Shown in pieces: positions 3,847-62,875 of a stretch of DNA of 64,000 bases (position 1 is the stretch's first letter; every line of letters begins with the position of its first letter). Below the pieces are notes generated by a model. The model was not told the origin of the DNA and searched no databases. It saw nothing but the letters and a program-made list of their open reading frames with translations. Position numbers and translations under genes: made by a program. This DNA comes from a virus: positions 78,382 through 142,381 of the IMG/VR virus record IMGVR_UViG_3300032087_004763. One strand, given 5' to 3'.

Positions 3847-4501
3847 TTGGAAACCTTCCACGTAACGCATTATAATTTTGTTTAACTTCATCGGCACTTA
3901 ACATTCTATTATATGCTGTAAAATGTAGTAGATCACCTTTTAATTCATTTCCAGAATATGAATTACATATTTTAGTAAAATTTAAACTTGCAGATGAATT
4001 GTAACCAGATAGAGTGGTTGCCTGTACACCATCTCGATAAATGTATCCAACTCCACTTCCATCTTGTCCTGCTACAATATACCTCCATGTATCAGCTGAT
4101 AATGTAGTACTCATTGACTTAGATACATCATTGTCTTTAAAAGAAAACGTTGTGCTATTTTGTCCGTATATTCCTATTTCATAATTTGCATTAGCATTAT
4201 CATCTTTAAATAAAAAATTCCACCAAGTTTCTTCTTGAGATGATGGTACTCGTACAATAAAAGATATACAAAATCCAGTTGAACCACTCAGACTTGTTGA
4301 AGATGACATAGTAATGCCATCACCTGTTCCATTTGCTTGAAGACCAGCTGATCGATCAATGGTTGATCCAGTAATTGTGCCAGTTTTGGATCCAACAGTG
4401 TCTGTAATAGATGAACCAGATTCATAACTTTTTTTACTACTAAAATCAATAGAGAAAGCAATATTATTTTTTGCAATGTTAGGTCCAGAATGTGCAGCCA
4501 T
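3842..4501 (-). CDS. LamG/concanavalin A-like lectin domain virion protein
   Basis: W.YIVA...IYRDG and YNRMLSADEVKQNYNALRGRF motifs. Confidence 0.8.
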   Translation of the reverse strand: MAAHSGPNIAKNNIAFSIDFSSKKSYESGSSITDTVGSKTGTITGSTIDRSAGLQANGTGDGITMSSSTSLSGSTGFCISFIVRVPSSQEETWWNFLFKDDNANANYEIGIYGQNSTTFSFKDNDVSKSMSTTLSADTWRYIVAGQDGSGVGYIYRDGVQATTLSGYNSSASLNFTKICNSYSGNELKGDLLHFTAYNRMLSADEVKQNYNALRGRFPI

Positions 4502-9700: not shown

Positions 9701-11799
9701 TAATAAAGTTCTGCCTCAGCATTTTGTCTAACAACTAAACCATTTTTGTTCTCTGCAGCATTCATGATTTGGAATGTATTAGAGAGAACCTTTAGATTAC
9801 CAGTACCCTGATCATTAATATAACTATTAGACCCATCATGATAAATTTTAAGATCTGAATCAGCACCAAACGTTGCCATTACGTTATCACTAAAATTCAA
9901 ATTACCAGATGTTTTAGCGTCTTCTACATTACTTCTTAAAAATCCACTCGATTGAATATTGTCAAGCGTGTCTGCGTCTAATCCGTTACCGGATCCTTCA
10001 TCAGCAGTTGTTAATACTCTATTTCCAGAACTAGTGATAGTTCTATTGAAATCAAACTCAGCATTTGAATGATCGTATGTCAGTGATGGAGTGTCTACAA
10101 TGTTTGACCCACCCCATGTAATACCACCGCCATTCAGTGCAGAACTATCTGCTGCACTATCTCCAATGACAATGTTCTTGTCGTTAAGAGTAACGGTTGT
10201 AGAGTTAATTGTAGTCTGAGTTCCTTCAACTTGAAGGTTACCAAGAATCTTAACGGTCCCAGTTGCATCACCGATTGCTGCTGGATCAATGATAAACTCT
10301 GCAGGACCTCTTACCTGATTAAAGGTTGGATTTGCAGATGAGTCAAGTGGTTGAAAGTGAGCTTTTACTTCTGCAGCTGATGGACCGGTGTATGTAAATG
10401 CACCAGTTCCGCTATTATATGAAAAACTGCCATCACCGCCTGCATCGGTTGCAGAAAACATTCCACGCACATTAGCCGAGTCAATATCGATTGTACGATT
10501 AGCAGCAATTGTTCCACCACCAGTAAGACCTTTACCAGCAACTACGGATACGGTTGAGTGATCAATGTGTTCATTGGCTACGAATCCAGATAAATTATCG
10601 TGAACTATATCACCGTCTGTTGTAGTGATCTCTCCTGTAGTAGAATTGTATGTAATACCTGTACCACCGGATATGGCATTCTTTGCATCCGAATCAGCAC
10701 GGGCAGTCGTGTAATAAAGGTTACTACCTTCCGATAAATTACTGGTTGACTTTGTGGCTAGTCTTACATCAAATGCACTATCAGCCCTAACAGTGGTATA
10801 GTAAAGGTTCGTACCCTCTGGTAAGTTTGAGGTTGACGCATCTCCCAAGTCACTATCAAAATTTGCCTTAGTGTATACTTGTTCGACATCAAACGTAAAT
10901 TGACCAGTAGCAGAATTGTAACTTAAATCACCGCCTGCACTTAACGCCCCACGGATCTCCGAGATTCTATCATCTGAGTCATGGAATGTAGTTGCAAAAG
11001 AGTTGCCATCTGCAGTATTGATCGTAAAGACGCCAGTAGCTGAATCGTATGATGTGCTTGACACACCAGCAACATTAACAGTTCCGGCTGAATCAATCTG
11101 ACCTCGAGCATTAACTGTGAGGACTGGAACCTTAGACGCTGATCCATAGACAGCTGAGTCAACTCCGGTGTTTGTGATACTTAATGTATTTGATGCGCTA
11201 TCGAATGTAAGACCAGTTCCGCCAAGCGCAGTTTCATCAAGAGCCGTATTGAAATCAGAGTCAAAGTTTGCTTTCGAATAAGTTGCTTCGACGTCAATTG
11301 AAAACTCACCTGTAGAACTATTGTAGGTAATATCACCAGCACCACTGAAGAAGCTTCTGATCTGACTCTGAGATCCAGATAGATCAAACCCAACTGCGGT
11401 ACCAATAGAATCTGTAACAGAGAAAGTACCTGACTGATCTTTGATTGCAAGACCGCCAAGGTTCAGAGTACTACCACTTAGATATAAGTCCCTCCATTTT
11501 GCTGCAGCGGATCCGAGGTCATACGTGCTATCAGCCGATGGAATAAGGCTACTTGATATGGTGGTAAAGACTGGTGATGACGTATTTACGAATTTTTGTG
11601 ACGATGAATCAAACTGAATGAAGTCGTTATTTGAGGCGCCTGATATTACTACATCGCTAAGACCATCAAATGAAGATCCGGCTTGCACAACAGATCGAAT
11701 CGGCGTTCCAACCGTAATACTTTTGACAATAGTTGTTCTGTCTGTAGAGGTGACCTTGACCGATCCAATCGTTCTTCCAGATAAGGTAATCTTTGACAT
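6769..11799 (-). CDS. Long tail fibre protein (1676 aa)
   Basis: S/T/G-rich; repeated NLxEGxNLYYT, KANFDSD and GxxxDLxIYHxGSxSYI...KLETTxxGVTVTG modules; 22-bp internal repeat near 7640 and 8018. Confidence 0.85.
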   Translation of the reverse strand: MSKITLSGRTIGSVKVTSTDRTTIVKSITVGTPIRSVVQAGSSFDGLSDVVISGASNNDFIQFDSSSQKFVNTSSPVFTTISSSLIPSADSTYDLGSAAAKWRDLYLSGSTLNLGGLAIKDQSGTFSVTDSIGTAVGFDLSGSQSQIRSFFSGAGDITYNSSTGEFSIDVEATYSKANFDSDFNTALDETALGGTGLTFDSASNTLSITNTGVDSAVYGSASKVPVLTVNARGQIDSAGTVNVAGVSSTSYDSATGVFTINTADGNSFATTFHDSDDRISEIRGALSAGGDLSYNSATGQFTFDVEQVYTKANFDSDLGDASTSNLPEGTNLYYTTVRADSAFDVRLATKSTSNLSEGSNLYYTTARADSDAKNAISGGTGITYNSTTGEITTTDGDIVHDNLSGFVANEHIDHSTVSVVAGKGLTGGGTIAANRTIDIDSANVRGMFSATDAGGDGSFSYNSGTGAFTYTGPSAAEVKAHFQPLDSSANPTFNQVRGPAEFIIDPAAIGDATGTVKILGNLQVEGTQTTINSTTVTLNDKNIVIGDSAADSSALNGGGITWGGSNIVDTPSLTYDHSNAEFDFNRTITSSGNRVLTTADEGSGNGLDADTLDNIQSSGFLRSNVEDAKTSGNLNFSDNVMATFGADSDLKIYHDGSNSYINDQGTGNLKVLSNTFQIMNAAENKNGLVVRQNAEAELYYNGVERFATTEGGVNVVGSLVADSATVTNLTLPDDGLINLGDNNDLRLDHTGSVSRIRSYTGELQITQNANDQDVSIRTDDGTGSTALYFKADGSEGKVRLYYYGTEKLTTESDGVTVTGSLIADSISLADNARIKLGDANDLQIYHNGSHSYIDEGGTGSLIFKTSQILFKNPADNEQMASFTANGDVKLRYDNVTRLETTEGGVTVTGSLVADSINLGDLNRLTFGAGEDLKIYHNNSSNINFIDGTGSTIIRGNWLYLRKSGSTENFLICKGDGAVEVYHDNSKKLETTAYGATVTGSLVSDSVSTGPLNLTGIVTQTTTSSTSNLTGTWRYERTPGQTNIELRPNAAYTGWHPNILMRSQQSGTAMYMLTNGNRVGIGQYDAGTGGTPRDMSAMITFQPSADSTPRLDIGDAGSVNGELGIGGNVILGDSLGFSTSELIQSTAAIELSGGVTYDPAGGGPDTANDVGIALTTGTRIIGADNGYIRTLLEWNQSNALEIGQSGTALINHTKIFGGTNGVELYESTAKKLETTPYGVTVTGTVNADSATISGNLTVDTNTLVVDAANNKVGINVASPQRSFHIVDQNVGVATTYGVAVVEATDAQFDLVSSSDGTWGSSINFVEGASTSANTDVWSIARKTTGGAGDGSLHFNFGTVNQHNNSNKMILSNSGDLTVVNDLTVDTNTLHVDAANNRVGIGLTAPTSPLTIKSSSVSSTSSGLSIQANSSTNDIVRIAEKSTNGGRFHMYDSGVEKIAFYTDGTDNHISAGNLGLGTTSPTEKFEVYPDTDISAVIGRAHIGYMGFSDIAGFSHVDKNSTNDYALIQNGSGQVWLNASSGQNMNFRINNGQKMTLSGSSFDIDVPVTIGAFGSYTLDGDSAEVASVSQTSIAEFAHASYCGAKFIVTASQGTKRQISELLVTHDGTTAVATEYGTITTDSDLATYDVDISGSDVRLLATGTSATSTRYKVVETLIEA

Positions 11800-43800: not shown

Positions 43801-43982
43801 GTGTCAAATTCCTTCATTGCTGAATATGTGTCTAAGACACCTGAGCTCTGAATGGTATTATACACCTCAATGTCGGACATGTACACAGAATTTTCACGGG
43901 CTAGTTTTGCTGCAGCCTGACGCTCACGGTTAATCTTGTTACCGATGCGGCGGATCATCTTTAAACGTTGTGCTTTTGTCAT
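43791..43982 (-). CDS. Hypothetical protein
   Basis: GAGGA RBS upstream. Confidence 0.55.
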   Translation of the reverse strand: MTKAQRLKMIRRIGNKINRERQAAAKLARENSVYMSDIEVYNTIQSSGVLDTYSAMKEFDTCQ

Positions 43983-44127
43983 AATTTAATTTCCTCTCAA
44001 GTTCATGACGTAATGTGCGAAGCTCTTCAATACGATCTTCGACTAATTCTCTCTGCGAGACCTCTTCTAAGAATCCAAGGTCTTCATCAATTGTGTTTAT
44101 CTTTTGGATTATATCTTGATTTTCCAT
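43939..44127 (-). CDS. Hypothetical coiled-coil protein
   Basis: ORF track; overlaps a promoter-like motif. Confidence 0.4.
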   Translation of the reverse strand: MENQDIIQKINTIDEDLGFLEEVSQRELVEDRIEELRTLRHELERKLNYDKSTTFKDDPPHR

Positions 44128-44145
44128 AAATGTACACTACTTTTT
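44108..44145 (-). promoter_or_regulatory. Early-type promoter: A-tract, TGTACA-17-TATAAT
   Basis: Matches the motif family at 46004, 47892 and 62837. Confidence 0.5.
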
Positions 44146-45021: not shown

Positions 45022-45062
45022 AATAGACTCCTTTATGGTCTATTTATCTAAAAAATAAAAGC

Positions 45063-45216
45063 GGAACGGGGAGACTAGGGTAACTCCCAAGGGGGTACTA
45101 TCTGATGTACCTTTCATCTTAGACCCCCAACAACCGTGCAGCCCGCTAAGGCATTGCCGCTAAGCACTTCCAGTCTACCTTACCCCCCATCAGAGAGAGG
45201 TATTCGGTCACGTTCC
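45063..45216 (-). ncRNA. Multi-stem structured ncRNA, possibly manA-like
   Basis: Closing GGAACG/CGUUCC; hairpin UACCUCUC/GGGGGGUA; AGACUGG/CUAGUCU; GUGC/GCAC; GGGGGU/ACCCCC with inner GAUG/CAUC; U-tract follows. GC-rich and non-coding, downstream of the tRNA. Confidence 0.7.
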
Positions 45217-45241
45217 TATCGGCGCTGCAGGCACCGAACTC

Positions 45242-45317
45242 TGGCCTCGTCGGCAGGATTCGAACCTGCGACCCTCTGCTTAGAAGGCAGATGTTCTATC
45301 CACTGAACTACGACGAG
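45242..45317 (-). tRNA. tRNA-Arg (UCU)
   Basis: 76 nt; acceptor CUCGUCG/CGACGAG; anticodon arm UCUGC-CU UCU AA-GCAGA; GGUUCGAAUCC T-arm; encoded CCA. Confidence 0.95.
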
Positions 45318-45320
45318 TAA

Positions 45321-45388
45321 AACTTATAAGGATGGCTACTCCTACAGAGAGAGGAGAGAGATGGCAGAAGTAGCCATTCTTATAAGTT
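45321..45388 (-). ncRNA. Hairpin RNA (25-bp stem, 18-nt anti-SD/anti-AUG loop), candidate antisense sRNA
   Basis: 24 of 25 stem positions pair (2 G-U); loop CAUCUCUCUCCUCUCUCU; 19 nt complementary to 59064-59084. Confidence 0.7.
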
Positions 45389-45576
45389 CACACCGGATTC
45401 CGATTGATATAGGAATCCACAATTTCTTTAAAGTTGTTGAGTGTGATCTCACCCCACTCATTCAAACTAATTCTCTGACCGTTCTCACGAAACTCCATGT
45501 AACGGTCAACAATAACTAATTCATCTAGCTCAAGCTTATAGACGAATCCTTTATACGCATACAATGACTGTGCCAT
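45388..45576 (-). CDS. Hypothetical protein
   Basis: GAGGAG RBS; coupled to the upstream stop. Confidence 0.55.
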   Translation of the reverse strand: MAQSLYAYKGFVYKLELDELVIVDRYMEFRENGQRISLNEWGEITLNNFKEIVDSYINRNPV

Positions 45577-47891: not shown

Positions 47892-47930
47892 ATTCTATAA
47901 TATAACTGAGGAAATGTACATATCTTTTTT
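47892..47930 (-). promoter_or_regulatory. Early-type promoter: A-tract, TGTACA-17-TAGAAT
   Basis: Shares downstream GGTACCATAA with the 62837 copy. Confidence 0.7.
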
Positions 47931-58764: not shown

Positions 58765-59073
58765 CTATTTCTTTTTCAGTGCATCCGCTCCAAAGAAAGC
58801 CGAAACTAAAACTGCAATTGATGCAAAATAAGTTGGAGCGATATCAGCAATCAGTTCAGCTGCTGTATCGAGCCCAAACAAAGATGTCATAAATATCCCG
58901 AACGGATACAATAACAAACCAAAAAGTGCGAACCAAGCCATCTTGCGGATCGCATCACGCTGAGCATCAGCGTCTTCCATTTCCTTTCTCATATTCCAAA
59001 GGTACATCTCATGTTCTTCATTACTAACTACCCCATCACCATTCGTATCTGCTGGGTGTTGACCTTCTGCCAT
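58765..59073 (-). CDS. EF-hand-like plus two-TM membrane protein (holin-like)
   Basis: DTNGDGVVSNEE loop, two hydrophobic helices, basic KKK C-terminus; AGGAGAG RBS. Confidence 0.6.
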   Translation of the reverse strand: MAEGQHPADTNGDGVVSNEEHEMYLWNMRKEMEDADAQRDAIRKMAWFALFGLLLYPFGIFMTSLFGLDTAAELIADIAPTYFASIAVLVSAFFGADALKKK

Positions 59074-59102
59074 ATCTCTCTCCTATGGTAGATTGTTTAT
59101 AG

Positions 59103-62836: not shown

Positions 62837-62875
62837 ATTATACCAAATCCTTCAGAAATGTACATACTTTTTTTT
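62837..62875 (-). promoter_or_regulatory. Early-type promoter: A-tract, TGTACA-16-TATAAT
   Basis: Repeated motif family. Confidence 0.7.

Follow-up and report, generated by a model that had tools for sequence, protein, structure and literature searches.

Related systems and the locus under study

Among known systems, the c4 antisense repressor RNA of phages P1 and P7 comes closest (Hartmann et al. 1995, PNAS 92:5822, as cited in PMC4919922). Through its exposed loops, c4 binds the ribosome-binding region of the phage gene icd and blocks translation, and RNase P matures it from a longer transcript. The hairpin described here resembles c4 in being a small, structured, phage-encoded RNA whose loop would face the ribosome-binding region of another phage gene. 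The two also differ. While c4 acts on its own operon transcript in the immunity of a temperate phage, the candidate target here lies 4 to 14 kb away in a lytic T4-like phage, and while c4 is itself a tRNA-like substrate of RNase P, here RNase P would cut the neighboring tRNA. Further, unlike c4, the hairpin RNA overlaps a protein-coding gene in most relatives.

Type I toxin-antitoxin systems combine a small hydrophobic protein with an antisense RNA at its start region (PMC2887945). Here, likewise, a structured RNA shows complementarity to the ribosome-binding site of a gene for a small membrane protein. However, the type I RNA lies at or overlaps the toxin locus, whereas the two partners here are separated by 13.7 kb in the genome under study, and the 102-amino-acid target, a toxin only putatively, is longer than typical type I toxins. 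Because of this separation we do not retain the type I label used in a preliminary description of the sequence.

In the RNAIII and RsaE/RoxS type of RNA from Gram-positive bacteria, and in the prophage small RNA DicF, C/U-rich loops seed on Shine-Dalgarno regions. A pyrimidine-rich hairpin loop facing Shine-Dalgarno regions is the point of likeness, but those RNAs are chromosomal or prophage encoded, with their own promoter and terminator, whereas the hairpin has neither and belongs to a tRNA operon in a marine phage that is lytic. Processing of a tRNA precursor can also yield a regulatory RNA as a by-product, as with 3'ETS-leuZ, and the hairpin would arise in a similar way. In contrast to the hairpin, which lies 5' of its tRNA and would target an mRNA, 3'ETS-leuZ lies 3' of the tRNA and is a sponge for small RNAs. 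To our knowledge, almost no trans-acting regulatory RNAs have been described in lytic T4-like phages, and we know of none in the abundant marine phages related to HTVC008M (SAR11) and Melnitz (OM43).

The window analyzed here is a 64,000-nucleotide stretch (bases 78382 to 142381) of a 142,381-bp phage contig with 40% G+C, referred to as G000. Judging by gene content and by the closest isolates, Methylophilales phage Melnitz and Pelagibacter phage HTVC008M, we assign this phage to the Kyanoviridae, among the marine T4-like phages of SAR11 and OM43. Table 1 collects the features of the locus.

Table 1. Positions of features discussed in the text; numbering is that of the window unless a relative is named
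Feature	Position	Strand	Basis
RNA hairpin	45321-45388	-	MFE, z, covariation in 9 relatives; A.C mismatch conserved
Near-invariant anti-Shine-Dalgarno-like loop motif UCUCUCUCCUCUCUC; CUCCUC is the most conserved core	45347-45361	-	Identity across lineages
Top of 5' stem arm, CUUCUGC; could lengthen the pairing over the target AUG via strand invasion	45364-45370	-	Complementarity
tRNA-Arg(UCU), CCA encoded	45242-45317	-	ARAGORN; Rfam tRNA 73 bits
62-aa 'YAYKGF' ORF upstream of hairpin, stop abuts hairpin; locus marker in relatives	45388-45576	-	Alignment searches
Relic start of small membrane-protein ORF, GTG AAC TTA TAA, closed at codon 4	45378-45392	-	Comparison with intact ORFs in L001, L083, L085, L088-L090, L303
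Small two-helix membrane-protein gene	L001 674-829, L085 2021-2197, L088 1322-1552, L090 1350-1571, L303 11098-11331		Conserved, overlaps hairpin
Target gene: 102-aa protein, EF-hand-like DTNGDG loop, two hydrophobic helices	58765-59073	-	Translation, homologue context
Proposed target site: GA-rich Shine-Dalgarno region, AUG, codons 2-3	59064-59084	-	Complementarity, shuffles, opening energies
Promoter-like sites TGTACA-N15-19-TANAAT	3998-4028, 43857-43885, 44108-44136, 47892-47920, 62837-62864	-	Enriched class
Closest promoter-like site upstream of hairpin, TGTACA-17-TAGAAT; candidate early promoter	47892-47920	-	Putative function

The hairpin and the small gene that overlaps it

The minus-strand hairpin has a 25-position stem with 24 pairs, two of them G-U, and one A.C mismatch; bases 45388 to 45364 pair with 45345 to 45321 around the 18-nt CU-rich loop CAUCUCUCUCCUCUCUCU (45363 to 45346). 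Refolding and ARAGORN confirmed the geometry claimed for it, a 25-bp stem with 24 pairs and an 18-nt loop that ends 3 nt before tRNA-Arg(UCU). Its first base is the last base of the stop codon of the 62-aa ORF. The minimum free energy is -32.6 kcal/mol (z = -7.7), none of 200 shuffles folded equally well, and keeping the loop open costs about 0.1 kcal/mol in an opening-energy calculation. An Rfam search at the hairpin returned no family, with only sub-threshold matches to microRNA models (28.9 bits against a gathering score of 100). A scan for intrinsic (Rho-independent) terminators gave none at 45321-45388, where the stem base is A+U-rich; UUUUA follows the hairpin in the window alone, and the relatives L083 and L085 lack a U tract. 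A plus-strand ORF of 52 aa (45361 to 45519) that starts in the loop was set aside as antisense within the conserved 62-aa gene.

The promoter-like class TGTACA-N15-19-TANAAT was found five times against 0.59 expected, always on the gene (minus) strand, and is probably the early promoter consensus of this phage. Of the five copies, one precedes the hairpin by 2.5 kb and one precedes the target gene by 3.8 kb. The hairpin had been described as lying downstream of an early-type promoter; this holds in part, in that the class is enriched and a copy lies upstream, although the nearest one is 2.5 kb away and the early timing is what we infer from it. On the other side of the tRNA, directly after its CCA, a structured RNA of about 180 nt (45059-45236, minus strand) is a full-length match to the Rfam manA motif (41.2 bits, E 2e-8, under the gathering score of 55.2). 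It sits between the tRNA and an 87-aa ORF in the window, and manA-like RNA is also found 3' of tRNA-Arg in L084 and L303. The manA motif is a riboswitch candidate of marine T4-like cyanophages, located in potential 5' UTRs (Weinberg et al. 2010, PMC2864571).

Alignment of the 62-aa 'YAYKGF' ORF (A1) retrieved 12 viral and 25 metagenome loci. Every one of the 12 viral loci has the hairpin directly 3' of this ORF and 5' of tRNA-Arg, as do 20 of the 21 metagenome loci that were folded; the exception is L271. Across nine distinct sequences, 95.4% of cells were paired and 10 of 29 pairs showed double-sided changes; none of 500 shuffles did as well, and slid registers were 31 to 51% paired. The stem arms of the lineage of G001, G003, G007, and L303 are almost wholly different in sequence from those of the window, while the fold is identical. 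Numerous conserved G-U pairs are valid on the sense strand only. Since they would be A.C on the other strand, we rejected a DNA cruciform and an opposite-strand RNA as explanations and regard the hairpin, from these comparisons, as a conserved, phage-encoded structured RNA of the sense strand.

The 15-nt loop motif is identical in G000 to G003, G006 to G008, and L303, and this identity extends to records whose stems differ throughout. The few metagenome variants that differ do so outside CUCCUC, which all of them keep. L303 is mosaic in this module (10910-11331): its upstream ORF is of G002 type, its hairpin and small ORF are of G003 type, and its target has a G000-type N terminus, which suggests recombination among these phages. 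A scan of viral contigs with the bare loop motif gave mostly unrelated CT-rich sites among the matches listed. Among those matches, the unrelated viral contigs L125/L133/L217, L179, and L188 carry other long hairpins with UCUCUCUCCUCUCUC in the loop; phages may use CU-rich anti-Shine-Dalgarno loops with stable stems more widely, or the motif-directed search may itself have produced this picture.

Most relatives have the hairpin within a conserved hydrophobic ORF of 52 to 77 aa, at a distance of 70 to 140 nt from the tRNA. The start codon of this ORF (ATG or GTG) shares bases with the upstream stop (TAATG, GTGA) and is hidden in the stem base, and the ORF usually runs into the tRNA-Arg gene. 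Its changes across L001, L083, L085, G001 to G003, and L303 are synonymous and conservative, with no frameshifts. A PHROG search with the small membrane ORFs gave a weak holin match alone (E 0.02), on which we do not rely. In the window, L084, and L282, the small ORF has been destroyed (stop at codon 4, loop frameshift, 3' half deleted). The hairpin and the loop motif are nevertheless retained in these variants (window/L084, L282), now 3 to 4 nt from the tRNA, and the stem base, once coding, carries two double compensatory changes relative to the ORF-bearing relatives. This retention after loss of the ORF points to a function that belongs to the RNA structure and its loop themselves. By the same comparison the hairpin in the window is the remnant of a small membrane-protein gene, which the preliminary description had overlooked. 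That description had also proposed release of the hairpin by tRNA 5' processing; as a general rule this fails, because most relatives carry the hairpin within an ORF and 70 to 140 nt from the tRNA.

Thus, in most relatives the element is probably of dual use: besides an RNA role, it codes for the first helix of a small membrane protein, whose start codon it sequesters. In the window the RNA function alone is left. It is important to note that coding and start-codon sequestration could account for part of the conservation in ORF-bearing relatives. The hairpin could even be nothing other than a cis element of the small gene, which would be translated by coupling to the upstream ORF while its start codon is sequestered; the copy in the window would then be a decaying relic and its match to a distant gene incidental. 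The position of the ATG or GTG in the stem base, overlapping the upstream stop, is as this explanation would have it, and the small ORF evolves like a real gene. Masking a start codon, however, requires neither a 29-bp stem nor an invariant 15-nt loop, the hairpin stays intact with double compensatory changes where the ORF has been lost, and a GA tract 4 to 14 kb away that tracks the presence of the hairpin is left unexplained. We therefore consider a purely cis-acting element unlikely.

The stem itself raises another alternative: the hairpin could serve RNA processing or stability, as an RNase III-type site or as a protective stem at a 3' end, splitting the upstream early mRNA from the tRNA precursor and having no target in trans. 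With 25 to 29 bp, the stem has the roughly 20 bp or more of double-stranded RNA expected of an RNase III processing hairpin, and together with its conserved internal mismatch it resembles substrates of double-strand-specific RNases, among which are the RNase III sites of T7 and lambda. Moreover, the hairpin stands at the junction of mRNA and tRNA cluster in every relative, and RNase P cleavage in the window would leave it as a 3'-terminal stem. Such an element has no need of an invariant loop sequence, though, and in most relatives the stem is 70 to 140 nt from the tRNA and within an ORF. Nor is the hairpin terminator-like, given the negative scan in the window and the relatives without a U tract, and co-occurrence with GA-rich target start regions is not something that processing predicts. 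A processing element seems to us quite unlikely.

Proposed pairing with the start region of gene 58765-59073

Bases 45370 to 45352 of the hairpin (CUUCUGCCAU followed by CUCUCUCCU) are complementary to bases 59084 to 59064 (AGGAGAGAG[AU]AUGGCAGAAG). The duplex has 19 bp with one 2-nt bulge and spans the Shine-Dalgarno sequence, the AUG, and codons 2 and 3; 12 of the 19 pairing hairpin nucleotides are in the loop and 7 in the upper stem, exactly as had been claimed. Another site in the genome matches the hairpin over 13 nt (GAGAUGGCAGAAG); it lies inside a coding region and is no start site.

By hybridization energy alone, the target ranked first among the 236 start regions of the 142-kb genome (-33.4, compared with -25.0 for the next best), and its energy was reached by none of 814 composition-preserving shuffles. 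When opening costs were included, pairing through the loop only was optimal, with 11 bp, a hybrid energy of -18.6, and a net energy of -14.8 kcal/mol. Based on this accessibility-aware score, an approximation that sums duplex and opening energies, the target ranked 5/236 in G000, 8/220 in G001, 1/103 in G002, 8/103 in G003, 4/98 in G006, and 1/51 in G008. The prediction that it would rank first among start regions is thus borne out by hybridization energy and not by accessibility. RNAcofold of hairpin and target reported pairing of the flanks alone, as loop-target (kissing) pairs are pseudoknots in its model, and we did not use it further.

Strand invasion of the stem top, part of the original proposal, receives a mixed answer. 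Seven stem nucleotides are indeed complementary, and the extension CUUCUG:CAGAAG adds pairing in G000, G006, and G008, but it is absent from G001 to G003 and the optimum with opening costs is confined to the loop.

A generic (CU)8 probe ranked the target start region 1st to 3rd, so the signal is mostly that of a CU tract against a GA tract rather than of a specific sequence. A 16S anti-Shine-Dalgarno probe with an E. coli-type 3' end ranked it 3rd to 52nd; judged by this probe, greater Shine-Dalgarno strength alone does not account for the GA tract. Among all purine-rich 40-nt windows genome-wide, the target site came 1st in G001, G003, and G008 and 2nd in G000, and it was outside the top eight in G002 and G006. 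The second-best conserved family for loop pairing was the start region of the 62-aa ORF (GAGGAGAUGG), which was far weaker, with rank fractions of 0.02 to 0.35; kissing in cis between the hairpin loop and this region of the same transcript is conceivable.

We compared related records (the whole contigs G001 to G003 and G006 to G008, and later L303), using as a probe the loop of each genome extended by 8 nt at both ends. Across the eight hairpin-bearing records, hybridization was best with the start region of the target homologue, or was exceeded only by the antisense of the hairpin itself (1/236 in G000, 1/220 in G001, 1/103 in G002, 1/98 in G006, 1/52 in G008, and 1/29 in L303; best or best real in G003 and G007). 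The homologue in G006 is only 31% identical and has been relocated to 4 kb from the hairpin, instead of about 13 kb, yet it still has the GA tract. Among 52 families found in at least 4 of 5 records, the target family was an extreme outlier, with a mean log10 rank fraction of -2.03 compared with -1.16 for the next. The start-region ranks of the other 51 families were not preserved between records, which indicates that shared ancestry alone does not preserve such matches. Many equally good targets had been named in advance as a finding that would weigh against the pairing; on this point the outlying position of the target family speaks for it, whereas the (CU)8 result and accessibility-aware ranks of 1 to 8 do not.

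The target family comprises about 60 distinct start regions. Some types are represented by short contigs only and were set aside: an intermediate class of L044/L053 type (GGAGAGAG, -15.7), the L003/L017 type, with a plain Shine-Dalgarno sequence and the closest proteins, and lineages with a degenerate loop (L265, L281). Among the other records, the duplex of the loop motif with the translation initiation region (TIR) ranged from -15.5 to -21.8 kcal/mol where the hairpin is present (7 records) and from -5.4 to -14.5 where it is absent (8 records: G004, G009 to G012, HTVC008M, Melnitz, and L305). The two ranges do not overlap (U=0, p=0.0007), with the caveat that these statistics overstate independence if the bearers are one recombining group. 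They may be such a group: the target-protein tree is too short to show whether they form one clade and does not separate clades, although at least two changes are forced. Melnitz has no hairpin and yet has a moderately GA-rich start region (-14.5), compared with -5.4 to -9.5 in the other hairpin-less records. Searches found no hairpin in cultured phages, Melnitz and HTVC008M included, and no target homologue within 10 kb in L282.

Hairpin status was also predicted blind, from the start region alone, for a pair of long ENA contigs whose gene order is the same; both predictions were correct. L299/L303 has a GA-rich start region and, as predicted, the hairpin; L301/L305 has a plain Shine-Dalgarno sequence and, as predicted, no hairpin, with tRNA-Arg directly after an oxygenase gene. 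In this region of L305 (10898-11500), that gene, a 2OG-Fe(II) oxygenase, ends 2 nt before tRNA-Arg, and the record contains a run of N; the tRNA cluster of L305 is different, with Arg, Leu, Pro, and His. Base-by-base compensatory covariation between loop and target, which had been expected in relatives, was not found: the loop core is invariant, flank complementarity varies by lineage without matched changes, and the stem-top extension occurs in some lineages only.

Could the match be due to chance? Were the CU-rich loop conserved for other reasons, it would still be bound to match some GA-rich Shine-Dalgarno sequence, and both tracts could have been co-inherited in one phage lineage. The success of the (CU)8 probe, the accessibility-aware rank of 5/236 in the window's genome, a target-protein tree that cannot show independent origins, and the loop-motif hairpins of unrelated contigs are all compatible with this. 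Against it stand the lack of rank conservation in the other 51 families, the GA tract kept by the diverged and relocated G006 homologue, and the syntenic close relative L305, which is without both features, together with the two correct blind predictions. Of the three alternatives to pairing in trans, we hold chance complementarity to be the least probable, and improbable in itself.

Target protein and proposed function

The target protein belongs to a family of 2391 members. Pfam and PHROG searches with it returned no family and no holin match. No precomputed Pfam domain is present in any of the best 120 matches of the family, and some JGI records call its members 'FtsH-binding integral membrane protein'. 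In 5 of 5 non-T4-like phages (CRP-207, CRP-345, CRP-701, CRP-810, and Limnohabitans phage DC31), the homologues adjoin endolysin, holin ('holin family'), or spanin genes, a lysis-cassette context that supports the label 'holin-like' given to the target earlier. That label is not supported by the profile searches, nor by Melnitz and HTVC008M, where the homologue lies between baseplate-hub and tape-measure genes rather than lysis genes. In the window, gene 58765-59073 adjoins glycan genes.

Overall, the preliminary interpretation is partly supported. As the most likely function of the hairpin, a reading we hold with about even confidence, we propose that it pairs in trans with the mRNA of gene 58765-59073 at the GA-rich ribosome-binding region, which would reduce translation of that gene. 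The very stable stem presents an accessible CU-rich anti-Shine-Dalgarno-like loop. The RNA would be transcribed with the tRNA operon from a sigma-70-like promoter, and in this genome RNase P would make its 3' end three nucleotides past the stem. The loop would then pair with the target mRNA, occluding the Shine-Dalgarno sequence and, in this genome, the AUG as well. The predicted outcome is repression of target translation, by which a potentially membrane-damaging late or lysis protein may be kept silent early in infection.

A more elaborate reading, which we offer only tentatively, is that of a dual-function element. The mRNA segment coding for the first helix of a tiny membrane protein would fold, and its anti-Shine-Dalgarno loop would silence a lysis-cassette-type membrane protein in trans until late, as an RNA-based clock for lysis or membrane damage. 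The RNA role would outlive the coding one, and in the window's phage tRNA processing would trim the element to a free RNA.

A conserved hairpin, one predicted target, and a clear pattern of presence and absence in natural genomes make this a concrete and cheaply testable case. Should the target prove holin-like, lysis timing would include a layer of control by RNA. A further point of the case is that a coding sequence and what we read as a regulatory RNA occupy the same nucleotides, with the RNA outliving the gene.
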